A DNA stretch of 64,000 nt from an uncultured Dehalococcoidia bacterium (GTDB lineage Bacteria > Chloroflexota > Dehalococcoidia > Lucifugimonadales > UBA3495). The stretch spans positions 25,104-89,103 of the forward strand of contig CAYFGT010000003.1 of the NCBI GenBank assembly GCA_964343075.1, given 5' to 3'. The first letter of the stretch is position 1; each line of letters starts with the position of its first letter. Under the pieces are notes generated by a model. It ran no database searches and was not told where the DNA came from. It saw only the letters and a list, made by a program, of their open reading frames with translations. Below are positions 3,560 through 59,010 of this stretch, one piece after another. The position numbers were made by a program, and so were the translations under genes.

Positions 3560-4921
3560 TCACTTTGGAGAATTATAAAAGTCTCTTATTTTCTCTTTAA
3601 AGTCAGAATCGTAACGCTGCATTCTTCCTTGTCGTAGTTGTTCATCGGGGTCGGGGGCTCTAACCGGAGTCCCTTGTGTAGGTTCAAATCCGATTATTTG
3701 AGTGTCCAAAAGTTGCTGGAATTCCTCATCAGTTTTTCCCAGAAGATCTTTAAGAATTAGTTCATTATCTTGTCCCATGATGGGGGCAGCTTTGGGGGAA
3801 ACTGCAGGAGTATCTGAAAACTTCCATGGTCTACTAGCATACGGTAGTGGAGGCATGCCTGTGCTGGGGTGGTGTTCTACTATTTCATAAAATGATCTTT
3901 CCTTCAGGTGTTTGTCGAACAATAAATCAGGGCTCTCCATGACGGATCCCGCGGCTATGCCGTTCTGCTGAAGAATATGGGTGAGCTCGTGATTGTTCCA
4001 AGATTGGGTAATTGCGTTGATAAGTGCATGTAATTCATCTTTGTTAGTTAATCTGTCTAGAACAGTGGAGTATTTGGTTAAATCGTCAACATGATTGCTT
4101 AGGTTCAAGATTTTGCTTAAAGTTATCCATTCCTCATCAGTTTTGACAGCAATAGTGATCCATTTATCTATACCTTCACAACTGAAACAGCCATGAGGTG
4201 CCATTATTGGATCATCATTACCATGACGAGGCTCGATTCGTTTATTTACTATGAAATCTAGTAAAGCTTCTGGTACTGTTGCGGATGCCGTTTCTGTCTG
4301 GGATATATCGATAAATTGGCCTTCTCCAGTTGACATGCGGTGAATCAGGGCAGACATAATTGCAAAGACTGTATGTTCTGCTGCAGTGTAATCAATGTAG
4401 GGAATTTCAGGCATAATTGGCATATCATCTCGGTAGCCTGTCATCAGGGCCATTCCTGATGCGGATTCAGTGGCCGGCCCTGTTGCTCCGAAATTAGCCC
4501 AAGGCCCGTCGAATCCATATCCCGTCGATGAAACCATGATTAGGTCAGGCCTAATTTTTATCAAGTCTTGGTACTCTATACCAAACGATTTCATAACACG
4601 GGGAGTAAAATTTTCTGCAAAAATGTCACTAACTTGTATAAGTTCTTTTAATAACCCTAATCCTTCGGGTCTACTCAGATCCAAAGTGAGCCCTAATTTG
4701 TTACGATTCTGCTCGTAAAAATTCGCTCCTCTATTCCAGAAGGGTCCTTCTGAATTATTTTCGTATAGTGATGCGTTTCTATAACTTTCTAACCGGTGAA
4801 TTGACTCCATTCGAATAACTTGAGCTCCCATATCAGCTAGCATTTTCATAGCGCTAGGGATAGCGATCAACTGACCCATTTCTAAAACTCTTAATCCATG
4901 TAGAGGTCCTAGAGAAGTCAT
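3560..4921 (-). CDS. Family III (CaiB/BaiF/Frc-type) CoA-transferase
   Basis: N-terminus GLRVLEMGQLIAIPSAMKMLADMGAQVIRMES is the signature family-III CoA-transferase start. There is a 4-nt overlap with the upstream paralog. Confidence 0.85.
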   Translation of the reverse strand: MTSLGPLHGLRVLEMGQLIAIPSAMKMLADMGAQVIRMESIHRLESYRNASLYENNSEGPFWNRGANFYEQNRNKLGLTLDLSRPEGLGLLKELIQVSDIFAENFTPRVMKSFGIEYQDLIKIRPDLIMVSSTGYGFDGPWANFGATGPATESASGMALMTGYRDDMPIMPEIPYIDYTAAEHTVFAIMSALIHRMSTGEGQFIDISQTETASATVPEALLDFIVNKRIEPRHGNDDPIMAPHGCFSCEGIDKWITIAVKTDEEWITLSKILNLSNHVDDLTKYSTVLDRLTNKDELHALINAITQSWNNHELTHILQQNGIAAGSVMESPDLLFDKHLKERSFYEIVEHHPSTGMPPLPYASRPWKFSDTPAVSPKAAPIMGQDNELILKDLLGKTDEEFQQLLDTQIIGFEPTQGTPVRAPDPDEQLRQGRMQRYDSDFKEKIRDFYNSPK

Positions 4922-22455: not shown

Positions 22456-23532
22456 TTGGGATTCATTTCGGAGATACAAAATATGTCAATAGCAAACGAT
22501 ACACGCCACGCTGGAATCACCATAGCTCTGGATTGTATGGGTGGCGATTATGGGCCCGTTGAAACTGTAGCTGGAGCGAAACTCGCTCTAGAACAATATA
22601 AAGGAAGTAAAGAACTAAAAATATTACTGGTGGGTGACATCAATGATATTAATACTTATGTTGGAGACAGTGAACAGTCTGGCCTAGCGATAGTACAATC
22701 GGAAGGTAAGATTATTGATGATGAACACCCGGTCGAAGGATTGAGACGGAAACCAAATTCTTCCATTGTTGTTACAACTAAATTGGTTAAGAGTGGAGCA
22801 GCAGACGCAGCGGTGTCAATGGGGTCTACAGGGGCATCCATGGCAGCTTCAGTAATGATTTTAGGATTGCTGCCTGGTCTGGATAGGCCGTGTATAGGCG
22901 GACCCTTTTTGGGACTAGCACCCAACACAGTATTGATGGATATGGGAAGTAATATAGATTGCAGACCTAATTTATTACTGAGCTTCGCTATGATAGGGTC
23001 TGTGTTCTCTGAAAAATTTCTCGGGATTGATCACCCAAGAGTTGGTTTACTTAGTGTTGGGTCTGAGCCTGCTAAAGGCAATAAACAAGTACAGGATAGT
23101 TATAAATTGTTTCAGTCTAGTCCAGTCAATTTTGTAGGAAACGTTGAAGGCATGGACTTTTTTACCGGCAAGGCGGATGTGATCGTGTGCGATGGTTTTG
23201 TAGGTAATATTTTGTTGAAATTCGCAGAAGGCATGGGTAGTGTGCTAAGGCGGTATACTCAGTCCCAATTATCCAAGATGCTACCAGGTGATGAGGCAGG
23301 AGAATTAGGTGAAAAATTATGGACGGAAACAAATTTAGCCAGATCCATAGGAGGACCTTTATTTGGAGTCAAGGCTCCTGTAGTGGTTGGACATGGGTCT
23401 GCGATGGCGGAAGAGGTAGCAGGAGCGATAGCCACGGCGCTAAAACTGGTTGAATTAGATGTTCAAAGTGACTTAGAAAGATCCTTGGTGGAATTGGCAT
23501 CTCATCAAGAAACTGGAGCTGGGCTTGAGTGA
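22456..23532 (+). CDS. plsX: Phosphate acyltransferase PlsX
   Basis: IALDCMGGDYGP, VSMGSTGA and CDGFVGNILLK are PlsX signatures. The start is TTG 22456 (AGAGG RBS 5 nt upstream) or ATG 22483. Confidence 0.9.
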   Translation: MGFISEIQNMSIANDTRHAGITIALDCMGGDYGPVETVAGAKLALEQYKGSKELKILLVGDINDINTYVGDSEQSGLAIVQSEGKIIDDEHPVEGLRRKPNSSIVVTTKLVKSGAADAAVSMGSTGASMAASVMILGLLPGLDRPCIGGPFLGLAPNTVLMDMGSNIDCRPNLLLSFAMIGSVFSEKFLGIDHPRVGLLSVGSEPAKGNKQVQDSYKLFQSSPVNFVGNVEGMDFFTGKADVIVCDGFVGNILLKFAEGMGSVLRRYTQSQLSKMLPGDEAGELGEKLWTETNLARSIGGPLFGVKAPVVVGHGSAMAEEVAGAIATALKLVELDVQSDLERSLVELASHQETGAGLE

Positions 23533-52950: not shown

Positions 52951-53397
52951 TTGAACATAAGTGATTACATTTTAATATTGATTCAATGGACTCACCATCT
53001 CGGAGCAGTGTGTTGGGTAGGGGGATGCGTTTTTTACTACCTCGTGCTGAAACCTGTATATCAAGAAACACAGACTGTTTCCTTGGACAGGCAGCGAATT
53101 GCCTATCAATTTAGGTATGTAGTTAAAGGGGCCATATGGGTATTAATTTCTACAGGAATTGTTCTAGGTATTTCTGAACTAGTAACTCAAAGTGTGAGTA
53201 ACACTTACATAGTGGTATTGGGAGTTAAAGTCGGTTTTGCCGCCTCTATGTTCTTATTGTATGTTTTTAATAAAGAATCTCAGGCAGCTGTTGTTAGGGT
53301 GCTTAACATTCCGGTTTATCGGACAGACTTGATTCTGATATTAGGTATATTGGTGATTGGGCTTTCAGATATATTGAGCGCTCTGGGAGCTCTCTAA
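52951..53397 (+). CDS. Small integral membrane protein (about four TM helices)
   Basis: 148 aa, TTG start with AGGA 5 nt upstream. The hydrophobic helices include WTHHLGAVCWVGG (loosely CopD-like). Function unknown. Confidence 0.5.
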   Translation: MNISDYILILIQWTHHLGAVCWVGGCVFYYLVLKPVYQETQTVSLDRQRIAYQFRYVVKGAIWVLISTGIVLGISELVTQSVSNTYIVVLGVKVGFAASMFLLYVFNKESQAAVVRVLNIPVYRTDLILILGILVIGLSDILSALGAL

Positions 53398-53413
53398 AGA
53401 AAGGAGGGAATTA

Positions 53414-53593
53414 GTGAATAAAGGAATAATGGACCTGCTTGCATGCCCTATTTGTAACGGGGCATTGGTGATAGAAGAGGAAGTTTTGGTTGACGATAAG
53501 GTAACGTCTGGGAGTCTTGTATGTATAGAGTGTAAAGAAAGGTATCCCATCGAAGACGGGATACCTAACCTTCTGCCTCCTAATTTGCGGTAG
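53414..53593 (+). CDS. Trm112/UPF0434-family small zinc-ribbon protein (absent from the ORF track because it is 59 aa)
   Basis: GTG 53414 lies 6 nt after an AAGGAGGG RBS. Translation VNKGIMDLLACPICNGALVIEEE...GSLVCIECKERYPIEDGIPNLLPPNLR has the CPxC...CxxC...YPIxDGIPxLL signature. Confidence 0.75.
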   Translation: MNKGIMDLLACPICNGALVIEEEVLVDDKVTSGSLVCIECKERYPIEDGIPNLLPPNLR

Positions 53594-53594
53594 C

Positions 53595-54137
53595 CTATCC
53601 TACCGTTAACGTTCGGATGATTATCGGTGCGAGTTCTTCAGCTCGCTCCCTTAGGGTAACACGGTCCAGATTACCTATGGGATGCTTAGTAAATATTGTT
53701 GGATAGTTTTCTGCTCCCCATAATTTGGCCATAGCCCCTGCAGTTTCAATAAATCTATCTGTGCAAATTGTAGCTGAGGGGATGCCTTGCTTCTCAGAAT
53801 GTATTCCGTCGTGCACACTGCACGCGCTGCATGAGCCTCAATCGCCGATGGCTATGATGATCGCGTCGGAATTATTTGCTAAGGATTCTAGCTCTTTTGG
53901 ATCTGCTGGTTTTGAGGCGCTTGGTTTTTTGAGCCATGAAATACTCTTAACTTCATATTTTTCAGTTAGCACATTTGCAATTTCTTCTAGCAACACATCT
54001 GCATTGCGTTTACTATCGTCTATGAGTCCGATTGCTGCACCTGCTACAGTTTCTATTCTCGGAGCTCCTTGGAACTCAGGTACGATGGCCTCGGTGCTAG
54101 GATCTACTAAAGTGTAGGTTTGTTTAATGTTTACCAT
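53595..54137 (-). CDS. Mini-GrdB-like selenoprotein (UGSC / UxxCxxC motif); in-frame UGA at 53838-53840 read as selenocysteine
   Basis: Track ORFs 53838-54137 and 53595-53816 share one frame and are separated only by TGA. Read-through gives ...NSDAIIIAIGD-U-GSCSACSVHDGIHSEKQGIPSATICT...FTKHPIGNL... (180 aa). An AGGAG RBS precedes ATG 54137, and a SECIS-like hairpin lies downstream of the UGA. Confidence 0.75.
53807..53826 (-). promoter_or_regulatory. Candidate bacterial SECIS stem-loop
   Basis: mRNA CGCGUGCA-GUG-UGCACGACG forms 8 bp with one bulged A and a G/U-containing apical loop. The stem starts 11 nt after the UGA. Confidence 0.45.
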
Positions 54138-54147
54138 AGTTCTCCTC

Positions 54148-55218
54148 TTAAATATTAAATGATTTGGTAGTGGACGTTGAAGATACCTTGGGTCCCCAGC
54201 TGGGGATAACTGACGACATGTCTGCCTCTTCTCCGCCAGCGAATACGACCATTATATCTTCAGGGTGTTCGATTAAATTTATATAATCTGTGTGATCTGG
54301 AGGATTTACTTCACCCGGGAGTACTAATGCCGTTTTAAGTTCTGCTCTAGACTTTTTGATATTTTGGTGTAAATAAGCTTGAATGTCTGCCTTTGTCCAA
54401 TCTTTCCACAAGGAGCTATGGCCAGCGATTGTGACCACGATTTCTCCTTGCCTGATGCCAGTTTCAGATTTCCCTACAGATCCTGAGGTAGACAAAGAAG
54501 TACCTAACGAAGACGCAACATCCGCTATACAGTACAAGATCGCTTCTGGTTTGCCGACAGACCTAATTTGCCTTGGGGCTTCACCAGCAAAAGCGGTAAC
54601 GGTATTGGAATCTGATGAGAACCCTTTTTGCACACTGAGAGGTTCCCAATGGGTTTCAGTTTGGGCTTCTGCTATACAATAAGAATATTTGCCAGGGTGG
54701 CCAATCACTGATCGATCGAATAGTCCAGGAATCGCAGCACAAGCGTTCATCAAGATTAGGCGTACACTTCTGCCTATAGTTGCATTAGCACGATTCCCCG
54801 GGCCGAAAAGATTATTCCTGGCGTTTATTCCTAATTGAGAAACGACAGGACCATTGAATATCAATAGAATACCTGCTCCTCCTAGGCTAGATGACGGTCC
54901 TATGAGGTTGAATTTAGGGTCCAATATCGCTTCGGTCGCAGCCAGAACGGCTGGGAAATATTCTGGTAGACATCCAGCCATAACAGCGTTCGATGCTACC
55001 TTATCTAGGGTGATAGAGCGCCGACGTTCCGGGATCTCTCCTACAATATGTGACGCAGGGAGATTAACTACTCGTAGAAACTCATCAACCCTTGCATCTG
55101 TTGGCGGGACGACGGGAAGCCCGTCCGTCCAGCCTAGCTCATAGATGCGCTCTATTGCACTCAGAGGGTCATCGAACTCCACTTGTACCGTCTTGGTTTC
55201 TGCTTGATTCGAATCCAT
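54148..55218 (-). CDS. Conserved-looking protein of unknown function (356 aa), translationally coupled to the genes on both sides
   Basis: A long ORF whose ATG overlaps the upstream TAA (TAATG). Its stop lies inside the RBS of the selenoprotein gene. I cannot assign the motifs GWTDGLPVVPPT and NLFGPGNRANATIGR to a family. Confidence 0.6.
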   Translation of the reverse strand: MDSNQAETKTVQVEFDDPLSAIERIYELGWTDGLPVVPPTDARVDEFLRVVNLPASHIVGEIPERRRSITLDKVASNAVMAGCLPEYFPAVLAATEAILDPKFNLIGPSSSLGGAGILLIFNGPVVSQLGINARNNLFGPGNRANATIGRSVRLILMNACAAIPGLFDRSVIGHPGKYSYCIAEAQTETHWEPLSVQKGFSSDSNTVTAFAGEAPRQIRSVGKPEAILYCIADVASSLGTSLSTSGSVGKSETGIRQGEIVVTIAGHSSLWKDWTKADIQAYLHQNIKKSRAELKTALVLPGEVNPPDHTDYINLIEHPEDIMVVFAGGEEADMSSVIPSWGPKVSSTSTTKSFNI

Positions 55219-56165
55219 TATTTGACCCTAGCGTATTTGGACAGGCTTCTCATTTCACGAGGTTCATCGAGGTGTGAGCCTCTTATAGTGTACGAGACTT
55301 CTGCAACATAGATCGCTCCAGTTGAATCTACGGCTATACCGTGAGGTGCAATGAATTGTCCAGGGCCTTCTCCTTCTTCTTTGTCACCAAATACACATAC
55401 TCTATTCCCGTCTAGGTCATATATGGAAACACGGTGACCCAATCCTGGTGCGTCATCGACACCCCCCATTCCGTTTAGTTCACCTATATAAATATGGTCT
55501 CCCCATAACACCATACAGTCTGGTCTATGAATATTATTCCACATTGTTATGAAGTTGCCATCCACATCGAAAATTTGGATTCGGTGGCATTCTCTGTCTA
55601 CTACATAGACACGTTCGTTGTCATCAATTGCAATGTTGTGAGGTCGGATGAATTGACCTGCGTCTATTCCGGGTTCTCCCCATGAAAATTTGTATTGTCC
55701 GTCAGCGGTGTATACATGGATTCGGGAATTACCATAACCGTCCGATATGTAGATATCCCCGTTGCTTGGCCGTATCGCTGCAGATGTCGGCCGGTTAAAT
55801 GGCTGACCACTCCAGCGAGGCGCTGGATGATTCCGTTCTCCTATTTCCATTAATTTTTCACCAGATGTGGAGAATTTTTGGATAGTATGGATCCCGTCGT
55901 CTGCTGCTAATAGAGAGTCGTCGTGGGCGATGTATAAACCGTGAGTCCTGTTTTCACTGAATTGGCCGTCCCCGATGGATCTTAGGTAATTCCCATCTTG
56001 GTCAAACACCATGATAGGCTCTGGGCCTCTGGTTAGCACAAAAACCTGATCGTTTGAATCGCAGACTACCCCAGGGCATTCCAATAATCTTTTGCCTTCT
56101 GGTAGTTTCACCCAGTCTTCAACGAATGTGTACTTAAAGTCTCCTTGTCCATATATTTCACTCAT
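55218..56165 (-). CDS. NHL-repeat six-bladed beta-propeller protein (peptidyl-alpha-hydroxyglycine alpha-amidating lyase-like)
   Basis: Repeated ...D..G.IYV.D..N.RI..F...G blades (for example IYISDGYGNSRIHVY, VYVVDRECHRIQIFD, IYVAEVS); 315 aa. Confidence 0.8.
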   Translation of the reverse strand: MSEIYGQGDFKYTFVEDWVKLPEGKRLLECPGVVCDSNDQVFVLTRGPEPIMVFDQDGNYLRSIGDGQFSENRTHGLYIAHDDSLLAADDGIHTIQKFSTSGEKLMEIGERNHPAPRWSGQPFNRPTSAAIRPSNGDIYISDGYGNSRIHVYTADGQYKFSWGEPGIDAGQFIRPHNIAIDDNERVYVVDRECHRIQIFDVDGNFITMWNNIHRPDCMVLWGDHIYIGELNGMGGVDDAPGLGHRVSIYDLDGNRVCVFGDKEEGEGPGQFIAPHGIAVDSTGAIYVAEVSYTIRGSHLDEPREMRSLSKYARVK

Positions 56166-56193
56166 AATTCTCCTCCATTTTTGGTTTTTTGGG

Positions 56194-57792
56194 TTAATAG
56201 TTTAATAAAGAGCTTCCTTCTCCTTTAATGTACTCTGCAGTCCGTAAAGCGATTGCATGGATAGTAGGAGTTGGGTTTATACAAGCGCTTGTTGTAAAAA
56301 CACTCCCATCGACGATGAATAAATTTGGTACGTCATGAGTCCTACACCATCTGTCGACTACTGAAGTATCAGGGTCATTGCCCATTTTAGCAGTTCCTAA
56401 GAGATGCCATCCAGTATTTCTCCTTTGAGGTGAGGCCAAGATATCATGAGCACCTGCGGATTTCATTATGTCCTTTGCCCTGTCTACCCCGTGGGCTAAC
56501 ATGTTTTTTGTATTTTCACTAATTGTGTAGTCTATTTTGGGGGCTGGAATTCCATCTGAGTCGGTTAATACAGGGTCTAATGTAACTTGATTGTGTTCCT
56601 CAGGTAGATCTTCTGTCATGATCGTGATAGTAGCACTGTGTTGGAATCTCTCGGCAAATTGAGCGTGGTGTCGATGCCCCCATGCTACAGGCAATCCCAC
56701 TAGGCCTCCTAGTGCTACTCCTAATGGTGTCGTTGACTGGCTAGTAATTTGTAAATCATATCCCCTCACAAAGCCCCTAGAGATATCAGTTTCGTAGAAC
56801 TCTTGACATAACATGGCACTCCCTCTGGGGCCTACCGGATTACCGAAGTCTTCCTCAAAGATGCCAATAACTCCTCCACAAGGGTGATGCATCAGATTTT
56901 TCCCTACGAGACCAGTGGAATTTGCCAATCCTGTTGGGAATTTTCCACTTTTAGAATTCAAGAGGAGCCTTGCTGTGCCTACTCCGTTGCAAGCCATGAT
57001 TACGATTTTGGCTGTGATTTGTTGGAGGTCTCCTCTGCGGTTATAAAACAAAGCCCCAGTGGCTACTCCGTCTCTGTTTGTTAAAATCTCTCTAACACGG
57101 GCATTAGTTTTTAAGATAGCACCTGCAGATATAGCCTTGGGCCAGTAAATTATATCGCTACTTGAAAAAGATCTTAGGAAGGCACCTCGATCTGGTTCTC
57201 TGCCGTCATAATAGACCGATGAGTTAGCGTTGTCGGAATGCCACCAGTGCCATCCAAGTTTATTGAGTCCTTTAGCTATAGCTTCCCCTGCTGGATTTAT
57301 AGGTAAAGGAGGTGTCGGGCGAGAGAGCTTAGGAGGGTACGCAGGGTCTCCGTTTAACCCTGACACACCATGCATTTGATCGTTAATGTCATAGTAGGGC
57401 TCTATCTCTTGATAGCTGATTGGCCAATCTTCGGCTACCCCATCTACTGATTGGACACGGAAGTCTGACGGGTGGAACCTTGGTATATGCGATCCGTAAT
57501 GAAGAGTACTTCCACCTACACCGTTGTACATTAGAGGAGCAATAGGTGAGTTTTTATCATTGACTGGATAATCTTCAGGCAATTGACGAATATTCGGGTC
57601 TGGATGGAAAGCAGTTTGCCAATATATAGCTGATTCAGCGTCTGTAGACGGGAAGGCGTCAAAAGGAAGCCAGTCTCCTTGTTCGAGGCAAGTAACTTGG
57701 ATTCCAGATTTTGCCAAAGACCACGTTACGGCAGCTCCAGAGGCTCCTCCACCGATCACTAATACTTCTGTGTCAAACTTCATATCAGGCAT
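56194..57792 (-). CDS. GMC-family FAD oxidoreductase
   Basis: TEVLVIGGGASGAAVTWSLAKSG FAD fold and C-terminal HLLGTAKMG...VVD...NLFIVDGSVF. Confidence 0.85.
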   Translation of the reverse strand: MPDMKFDTEVLVIGGGASGAAVTWSLAKSGIQVTCLEQGDWLPFDAFPSTDAESAIYWQTAFHPDPNIRQLPEDYPVNDKNSPIAPLMYNGVGGSTLHYGSHIPRFHPSDFRVQSVDGVAEDWPISYQEIEPYYDINDQMHGVSGLNGDPAYPPKLSRPTPPLPINPAGEAIAKGLNKLGWHWWHSDNANSSVYYDGREPDRGAFLRSFSSSDIIYWPKAISAGAILKTNARVREILTNRDGVATGALFYNRRGDLQQITAKIVIMACNGVGTARLLLNSKSGKFPTGLANSTGLVGKNLMHHPCGGVIGIFEEDFGNPVGPRGSAMLCQEFYETDISRGFVRGYDLQITSQSTTPLGVALGGLVGLPVAWGHRHHAQFAERFQHSATITIMTEDLPEEHNQVTLDPVLTDSDGIPAPKIDYTISENTKNMLAHGVDRAKDIMKSAGAHDILASPQRRNTGWHLLGTAKMGNDPDTSVVDRWCRTHDVPNLFIVDGSVFTTSACINPTPTIHAIALRTAEYIKGEGSSLLNY

Positions 57793-57807
57793 GGATGCAT
57801 CTCCGCA

Positions 57808-59010
57808 CTACAAGTTTGCGTTCTCGAATACTGCTGATACTCCTTGTCCTCCGCCAACACACATGGTTTCTAATCCGTATCGGTGCCCTTCTCTTTTCAT
57901 TTCATGGAGCAAGGTTGTTAAGATGCGGGCTCCTGTGGCCGCGATTGGATGTCCCAGAGAGATTCCTGATCCGTTCACGTTAAGGATGTCTTCAGTTGGT
58001 AATTTCCATTCCCTCAGTACGGCGAGAACCTGGGCTGCAAATGCTTCATTTAATTCGATAATATCCATATCTTTTAGTGTCAAACCTAATTTTGCCATTA
58101 CTTTATTTGTTGCTGGCACAGGGCCTATTCCCATAGTTGCTGGGTGGCACCCAGTTACTGCCCATCCTCTAAGGTAAGCCATGGGCTCAAGCCCTAGTTC
58201 TTCTAATTTATCCTCAGCTACCACGAGGCACATCGATGCAGCGTCGTTTTGGCTGCTCGCATTTCCTGCTGTTACTGTCCCGTCTTTGATGACAGGTCTT
58301 AATTTTCCGAGTACTTCCATGCTAGTTGATGATCTAGGACCTTCGTCTTTGTCAAAAATGATGGGGTCTCCTCTGCGTTGAGGAATTTCTACAGGAACAA
58401 TTTCTTCTTGAAATTTTCCAGACTCTGATGCGTGAACTGCTCTCTGGTGGCTTCTCAGTGCGTATTCATCCTGTTCTTCCCTAGCGATTTCGTATTGTTC
58501 CGCTAAGTTTTCCGCAGTCCCCACCATTCCAGCTATGTACCCAAATCGTTCTTCTGGGGCTATAGTTACTCTTGCTCTTTCTAACCTGTCATGGAATTCC
58601 ACTGTCCCGAAGCGCGCACCCCATCTGGATTCGTTGGTGTAAAATTCAGCATTGCTCATGCTTTCTACCCCTCCAGCGACTACAACGTCCGCGTTTTCCG
58701 TTTGTATAAGCATCGATGCATTCAGAATTGCTTGGAGTCCCGATGAACACCGTCTGTCTAATTGATAGCCAGGAACTTCTATAGGCAGATCTGCCTTGAG
58801 TCCGGTTAAACGGCCTATAGCGGGATTTTCACCACTCGGGTAACCATGGCCAAGGATGACGTCATCTATTCTTTCTACATCCAGATTAGTATTTGAAATA
58901 ATTTGTTTCAGCACTATGGCGCCTAAGTCGGCAGCTGAAACTGGTTTTAACGTCCCTCCGAAGCCCCCTACAGCGGTTCTCAAAGGTGAAACTATTGCTA
59001 CTCCTCGCAT
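57808..59010 (-). CDS. Acetyl-CoA C-acetyl/acyltransferase (thiolase)
   Basis: VAIVSPLRTAVGGFGG, active-site region RRCSSGLQA, NGSGISLGHPIAATG and CVGGGQG; 400 aa. GAGGAG RBS. Confidence 0.9.
   Translation of the reverse strand: MRGVAIVSPLRTAVGGFGGTLKPVSAADLGAIVLKQIISNTNLDVERIDDVILGHGYPSGENPAIGRLTGLKADLPIEVPGYQLDRRCSSGLQAILNASMLIQTENADVVVAGGVESMSNAEFYTNESRWGARFGTVEFHDRLERARVTIAPEERFGYIAGMVGTAENLAEQYEIAREEQDEYALRSHQRAVHASESGKFQEEIVPVEIPQRRGDPIIFDKDEGPRSSTSMEVLGKLRPVIKDGTVTAGNASSQNDAASMCLVVAEDKLEELGLEPMAYLRGWAVTGCHPATMGIGPVPATNKVMAKLGLTLKDMDIIELNEAFAAQVLAVLREWKLPTEDILNVNGSGISLGHPIAATGARILTTLLHEMKREGHRYGLETMCVGGGQGVSAVFENANL

Follow-up and report, generated by a model that had tools for sequence, protein, structure and literature searches.

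UGSC-containing proteins, with the motif UxxC, are a major predicted selenoprotein family of ocean metagenomes, and 255 selenocysteine (Sec) forms vs 21 Cys forms were counted in the GOS data (PMC2398784). The family was counted as a selenoprotein in genomes having the Sec trait (PMC5029168), and a 2026 review, which cites the NCBIfam model NF041046, treats such proteins as predicted and functionally uncharacterised (PMC13188914). Further points of comparison are the selenoproteins B of glycine and proline reductase, i.e. GrdB and PrdB, to which an earlier note on the DNA analysed here had linked one locus because of a shared Sec motif.

Here, we describe this locus within a 64-kb window, i.e. 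the whole stretch of DNA that was analysed. The window has a G+C content of 42.5%, and the genomes closest to it are marine SAR202/Dehalococcoidia MAGs, with 88% identity to MAG SP188 (PBNM01000005.1).

Reading frame, family assignment and conservation of the UGA

Read on the reverse strand, positions 53595-54137 form a single frame, in which 180 sense codons are followed by a terminal TAG and the TGA at 53838-53840 is the sole internal stop. The mechanical ORF list splits this gene into two ORFs of the same frame, i.e. 53838-54137 (99 aa, starting with ATG) and 53595-53816 (73 aa, starting with GTG). That both are parts of one 180-codon gene with a single interruption had been proposed in the earlier note, and direct translation agrees. 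Based on the single frame and on the profile matches given below, the UGSC-family selenoprotein gene is complete and extends from the ATG at 54137-54135 to the TAG at 53597-53595. The ATG is preceded, 4 nt upstream, by the Shine-Dalgarno sequence GAGGAG (54142-54147, reverse strand; identified by direct reading), which abuts the TAA stop of the upstream partner gene (54148-54150). The GTG 'start' of the 73-aa ORF, on the other hand, is the codon for Val108, i.e. the Val of C-S-V, as already noted, and the 25 nt preceding it (TTGAGGCTCATGCAGCGCGTGCAGT) contain no Shine-Dalgarno sequence. The predicted Sec-encoding UGA is codon 100 and lies within the motif G-D-U-G-S-C-S-A-C, an assignment based on the conservation of the TGA and on Cys in full-length relatives; the peptide spanning the Sec would read AIGD-U-GSCSACSVHDGIHSEK.

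Among the 48 long ORFs of the window, 21 end in TAA, 16 in TGA and 11 in TAG, the TGA-terminated ones including both ORFs cited earlier as examples of genuine TGA stops (22456-23532 and 3560-4921). Since TGA terminates one third of the long ORFs, the genome uses the standard genetic code and the recoding of UGA at the UGSC gene is local, as the earlier note had argued. A suspected assembly error can be excluded as well, because the split locus carries the identical TGA in four independent assemblies (L001-L004; NCBI, ENA and Tara).

For the profile searches, the read-through translation was used with C in place of U. The protein matched NF041046, an equivalog model named 'UGSC family (seleno)protein', with 150.2 bits at a cut-off of 125 (residues 33-178 to profile positions 2-147 of 147), as well as Pfam PF24696 'UGSC' with 182.1 bits at a cut-off of 25 (residues 10-178 to positions 2-171 of 172), the latter alignment spanning the UGA position; the family name suggested in the earlier note was therefore the right one. 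NF041046 was also matched by all 39 aligned UGSC relatives. The window gene is thus an ordinary member of the curated UGSC selenoprotein family and is already known rather than novel, given that predicted selenoproteins have included this family from 2008 or earlier (PMC2398784).

For the comparative analysis, one genome was scanned per species, yielding 279 relatives, of which the best 80 loci, all from Dehalococcoidia or Chloroflexota, were used and 78 could be parsed; the related loci were located with the N-terminal UGSC alignment and are thereby confined to Dehalococcoidia. In all 78 parsable Dehalococcoidia/SAR202 species genomes, the Sec column is TGA, with neither TAA nor TAG in any of them, and after the TGA the frame continues with GSCSACSVHDGIH and 80-82 more codons, while the true terminator of the gene varies between TAG, TAA and TGA. 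Downstream of the UGA, invariant amino acids are encoded by two to six different codons in the related genomes, and such constancy of residues despite varying synonymous codons indicates that the frame is translated.

Similar evidence comes from the proteins in public databases, in which all copies found are split into 99-aa and 73-aa 'hypothetical proteins'. Of 121 homologs from a word-indexed search, nearly all are 99-100 aa long, annotated as 'hypothetical protein' and derived from SAR202, Chloroflexi or Dehalococcoidia MAGs; 24 homologs (41-83% identity) stop at exactly the Sec column, ending in ...(I/V)G(D/S). When the 80 residues following the UGA were used as the query of an exhaustive search, around 67 of the best 150 cluster representatives were fragments of 65-90 aa, most of which begin at a false GTG or ATG, and around 57, mostly 175-200 aa long, carried G-D-C-G-S-C, i.e. 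Cys in the Sec column. Gene callers thus split the UGSC gene, and most listed homologs are fragments ending at the same point.

Alignment of 39 full-length sequences showed no variation in Pro13, Gly98, Cys103, His152 and the Sec/Cys column 100 and hardly any in D99, and all 38 full-length relatives have Cys in the Sec column. The alternation of Sec and Cys that the earlier note had suggested looking for is therefore present. Its UxxCxxC motif stands in part: U/C-G-S-C is conserved family-wide, but conservation of the third Cys is confined to this Dehalococcoidia clade, and many relatives have A, S, G or T instead. In summary, the sequence comparison shows that the two short ORFs represent one gene with a conserved UGA that is equivalent to Cys.

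The likelihood that the locus consists of two separate small genes, or of a pseudogene that arose through a nonsense mutation or through misassembly, is accordingly minute. Public gene callers do annotate the 99-aa and 73-aa ORFs, but the GTG lacks a ribosome-binding site, one and the same Pfam domain covers both halves and relatives exist as single proteins of 175-200 aa. Moreover, the four independent assemblies share the TGA, all 78 species retain it, and the residues downstream of it are under strong purifying selection. The comparative data refute this reading.

The codon immediately 5' of the Sec-UGA (53841-53843, reverse strand), which encodes Asp, is GAT in 79 of 79 genomes, whereas most other Asp positions of the UGSC gene favour GAC over GAT. 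The invariant GAT suggests a constraint on the nucleotide context immediately 5' of the UGA.

SECIS-like hairpin and Sec decoding

SelB, together with Sec-tRNA(Sec), decodes a UGA that is followed by a SECIS element, the hairpin being responsible for the recruitment of SelB. Folding, synonymous freezing and pair counts all identified a candidate bacterial SECIS hairpin, CGCGUGCA-GUG-UGCACG(A)CG, at 53807-53826 on the reverse strand. It starts 11 nt 3' of the UGA, inside the sequence coding for S-A-C-S-V-H-D, and consists of a stem of 8 bp (6+2) with a bulged A and an apical G-U-G loop (53816-53818) closed by an A-U pair. The published criteria for bacterial SECIS elements comprise a loop of 3-9 nt, an upper stem of 4-16 bp, a distance of 16-37 nt between UGA and loop, a minimum free energy (MFE) of at most -7.5 kcal/mol and the pattern N1-G-[G|U]-N-N2 with a G within the first two loop positions (PMC13188914). 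The hairpin falls within all of them, having a loop of 3 nt, a stem of 6+2 bp, a distance of 19 nt, an MFE of -8.3 kcal/mol and the sequence A-G-U-G-U.

In 79 genomes, the hairpin codons GCG TGC AGT GTG CAC GAC (+5 to +10) show a synonymous entropy of 0.10, 0, 0, 0, 0.10 and 0.23 bit, respectively, in comparison with around 0.4-2.2 bit, mostly >0.6, at other codons for invariant residues of the UGSC gene. In the same 79 genomes, AGT is fixed within the hairpin although AGC is preferred elsewhere. Counting of base pairs over 50 distinct sequences showed 98.5% of the cells to be paired, with only two compensatory pairs, i.e. a change from G-C to A-U via two synonymous changes in one locus (L008) and from U-A to G-U in another (L090). 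Four distant Sec forms (L087-L090) harbour, at the same offset, a hairpin of equal or greater strength whose loop reads G-U-N. The hairpin energy did not differ significantly from that of shuffled sequence (z = +1.1 and -0.97 for stretches of 67 and 20 nt, respectively), and no Rfam family matched the hairpin region in E-value mode. Since the energy z-scores are not significant, the SECIS call is based on the comparative evidence, which shows, as far as aligned sequences can, a SECIS-like hairpin under RNA-level selection.

Within the 64-kb window, we found no tRNA-Sec, selA, selB or selD and no SelB or SelD motif, the sole tRNA being a tRNA-Ala; therefore, the Sec decoding machinery is assumed. 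A motif scan of the window found no credible gene with an in-frame TGA besides the UGSC gene. Taken by itself, the absence of sel genes and tRNA-Sec from the window would fit an organism that lacks the Sec machinery and in which read-through, or recoding to Cys or Trp, takes place at the UGA without Sec. We regard this as highly improbable, considering that the conserved hairpin with its near-frozen synonymous sites fits the SelB-type SECIS model, that the column is always TGA in 78 genomes though Cys codons are a single step away, and that the family counts among the listed selenoproteins of genomes having the Sec trait (PMC5029168).

Operon context and the partner gene

The UGSC gene closes an operon of a SAR202-type Dehalococcoidia genome, which consists of the genes for a thiolase (57808-59010), a GMC oxidoreductase (56194-57792), an NHL-repeat propeller (55218-56165), the partner (54148-55218) and UGSC, all on the reverse strand. 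Thiolase, GMC oxidoreductase and NHL propeller form a tight same-strand cluster upstream (55218-59010), which is preceded by a promoter-like site (59069-59041, reverse strand), and the stop of the NHL gene overlaps the ATG of the partner gene. The NHL gene is conserved beside the UGSC-partner pair in 59 of 80 genomes. A consensus scan found a terminator-like hairpin with 12 pairs followed by TTCTTT at 53540-53566 (reverse strand), 29 nt 3' of the UGSC stop, which is likely the end of the operon. As context only, the thiolase, GMC oxidoreductase and NHL operon together with nearby luciferase-like monooxygenases fit SAR202 catabolic neighbourhoods.

On the forward strand, a convergent gene for a Trm112-like zinc-ribbon protein of 59 aa (53414-53593; NF038101, 80.9 bits at a cut-off of 77) terminates at a distance of 1 nt from the UGSC stop and is conserved at the locus in 75 of 80 genomes. 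The terminator-like hairpin (53566-53540) sits within this gene, and a 61-aa ORF at 53365-53550 on the reverse strand is probably spurious antisense. A 148-aa protein encoded at 52951-53397 (forward strand) shows weak CopD-like similarity (E 6e-6), which falls far short of the cut-off, and is conserved alongside in 74 of 80 genomes.

The partner gene encodes 356 aa, lies directly upstream of UGSC, its stop 10 nt before the UGSC ATG, and was linked to UGSC by synteny and fusions. Among the best 80 of 279 loci, it is immediately upstream of UGSC in 78 genomes. In a distant lineage, a partner homolog with 38% identity adjoins a Cys-form UGSC gene in reversed gene order, and in two further distant loci the partner adjoins a Sec form. 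One of these two loci (L088:193-2220) has the arrangement UGSC(Sec)-partner-UGSC(Sec), with two selenoprotein copies around one partner. Furthermore, partner and UGSC occur as natural fusions, i.e. P0259 (556 aa), in which the second Cys is Ser, and P0250. The sequence comparisons thus show a near-obligate pairing and a functional link of partner and UGSC, and the partner gene is co-transcribed with the UGSC gene and probably translationally coupled to it. A fusion of UGSC to a domain named 'Unknown_1' was reported in 2008 (PMC2398784), comparable to the partner fusions found here; the partner is probably this domain.

The partner family itself is very large and wholly unannotated, which makes its pairing with UGSC a by-product of some value. 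When grouped at 90% identity, at least 7,988 clusters emerged from one search and at least 7,833 from another; all of them bear the name 'hypothetical' and lack a Pfam domain, and one comes from an isolate (Conexibacter). The partner had no Pfam or NCBIfam match, a scan of 44 family members revealed no consistent weak family, and PDB sequence searches with the partner protein and with a partner profile found no relative. An AlphaFold2 model of the partner is confident (pLDDT 83.8, pTM 0.86), and Foldseek against PDB gave no credible neighbour for it, the best match having an E-value of 1.2e-3 at a TM of 0.24-0.28 (range 0.2-0.28). Invariant features of the partner are WTDGLP and Cys83 within N-A-V-M-A-G-C, while the motif G-P-G-N-R-A-N-A-T-I-G-R and Cys181 are nearly invariant.

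Fold, redox role and relation to selenoprotein B

In the AlphaFold2 model of P0259, the UGSC domain (pLDDT around 95) consists of five alternating beta-alpha units, with the Cys of the Sec column placed between strand 3 and helix 3. Foldseek against PDB gave weak matches of this domain to flavodoxin-like, CheY, PTS-IIB and lumazine-synthase structures (E 2e-3 to 2e-2, target TM around 0.5), and no thioredoxin fold was among the 50 best matches listed. A PDB sequence search with the UGSC profile found no match. The Trx-like fold that was called 'likely' for UGSC in 2008 (PMC2398784) is therefore unsupported, as the homolog model appears flavodoxin-like instead and no Trx fold is present in the Foldseek list.

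With respect to selenoprotein B, the most common non-UGSC NCBIfam matches of the 39 UGSC proteins are five selenoprotein-B models, i.e. GrdB (TIGR01917; 16 of 39 members at E <= 0.1, best E 2.6e-5), TIGR01918 (10 of 39), GrdF (9 of 39), GrdH (5 of 39) and PrdB (4 of 39). In the window protein, the GrdB-type alignment covers the Sec region, i.e. residues 84-157, which align to profile positions 331-398 of 431, but the scores reach only 21.4 bits vs a cut-off of 602.2 and 14.6 vs 65.45. Pfam GRDB (PF07355), the profile with which the earlier note had proposed to check its GrdB link, matched neither the read-through protein nor any of the 39 UGSC members at E <= 1, and no grd/prd genes (grdA, grdE, grdC, grdD and prdA) were among the UGSC neighbours. 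Of the proposed link, a consistent remote resemblance is thus retained, while membership of the window protein in the GrdB/PrdB family is rejected on account of the sub-threshold scores, the silent PF07355 profile and the missing grd/prd neighbours. Judged from these profile alignments, a remote resemblance of the Sec-bearing region, and not membership, is credible.

Evidence for the function of UGSC comes from other fusions. P0198 (502 aa, one representative cluster) combines an N-terminal Cys-form UGSC domain with a C-terminal thioredoxin-reductase-like module, which matches TIGR01292 over positions 1-299 of 300 (E 4.9e-70) and harbours the redox motif CGTCDG, while in P0133 and P0163 UGSC is joined to a NifU-like C-terminal domain. 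The fusion with thioredoxin reductase points to a redox-carrier role for UGSC, and both types of fusion support the idea of a redox-active selenol/thiol protein that may be reduced by a flavoprotein.

Considering all of the above, we give a joint probability of about 0.85 to the reading that the locus encodes one 180-residue UGSC selenoprotein with a Sec-decoded UGA and a Sec/Cys redox pair, which functions with its partner and is re-reduced by a thioredoxin-reductase-type system. UGA codon 100 would be read as Sec, with the hairpin recruiting SelB and Sec-tRNA(Sec). Sec100 and Cys103, located where strand 3 of the presumably flavodoxin-like domain ends and helix 3 begins, would form a redox-active selenol/thiol pair, probably close to the invariant His152-Pro153, and could cycle between the selenol/thiol and the selenylsulfide state. 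UGSC might then act on or with the invariant Cys83 site of the partner, followed by re-reduction through a thioredoxin-reductase-type flavoprotein system. These functional steps derive from gene fusion, synteny and the model of a homolog, rather than from a model of the window protein.

Alternatively, UGSC could be more than a mere carrier, i.e. the catalytic subunit of a two-subunit reductase like protein B of glycine or proline reductase, in which case Sec would attack a substrate on the partner, the latter taking the role of GrdE or PrdA, and Cys103 would resolve the adduct to the selenylsulfide. The ranking of the NCBIfam matches, with selenoprotein-B models in all of the top five non-UGSC places, argues for this, as does the seemingly obligate pairing or fusion with a second protein that has an invariant Cys. 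We nevertheless consider it rather unlikely, since the GrdB/PrdB scores are far below cut-off without a match to Pfam GRDB, the partner is dissimilar to all Pfam and NCBIfam families, including GrdE/PrdA, and grdA, grdC and grdD are absent nearby; the thioredoxin-reductase and NifU fusions suit a carrier at least as well.

A related and tentative idea, which we deem possible at less than even odds, is that UGSC and the 356-aa partner constitute an undescribed two-component selenoenzyme, i.e. a functional analogue of GrdB with GrdE or PrdB with PrdA, in which Sec100 and Cys103 would act at the invariant-Cys site of the partner with electrons from a thioredoxin-reductase-type system. If true, such a selenoenzyme would be widespread in SAR202/Dehalococcoidia and Actinobacteria, and the fold of its partner would be one without a solved relative. 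UGSC was one of the more abundant families of predicted selenoproteins in ocean metagenomes (PMC2398784), and its near-obligate pairing with a very large unannotated family, together with the thioredoxin-reductase and NifU fusions, provides starting points for its function in SAR202-type bacteria.

When compared with known systems, P0198 has the same order as the AhpF-type architecture, i.e. an N-terminal redox domain followed by a thioredoxin-reductase module, the order in which AhpF reduces its own N-terminal dithiol domain. However, the N-terminal domain of AhpF has a Trx fold, whereas that of P0198 is UGSC and predicted to be flavodoxin-like; in addition, AhpF is a fused architecture and the UGSC gene of the window is stand-alone. 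GrdB, GrdF, GrdH and PrdB (TIGR01917, TIGR01918 and TIGR04483) share with UGSC a Sec followed by xxC and an HP motif downstream, and GrdB/PrdB and UGSC are alike in that each is paired with a second, separately encoded protein. In contrast to GrdB, UGSC has no large N-terminal region, and on the GrdB/PrdB models it scores tens of bits vs cut-offs of 65 to 800; unlike in GrdB/PrdB, the partner of UGSC is unrelated to any annotated family and the third Cys of UxxCxxC is not family-wide. By far the closest system remains the UGSC-containing protein of Zhang & Gladyshev (2008; PMC2398784), which, like the window protein, has U-G-S-C and around 180 aa. The family and the window gene share the alternation of Sec and Cys at the same column, and nothing essential differs between them.
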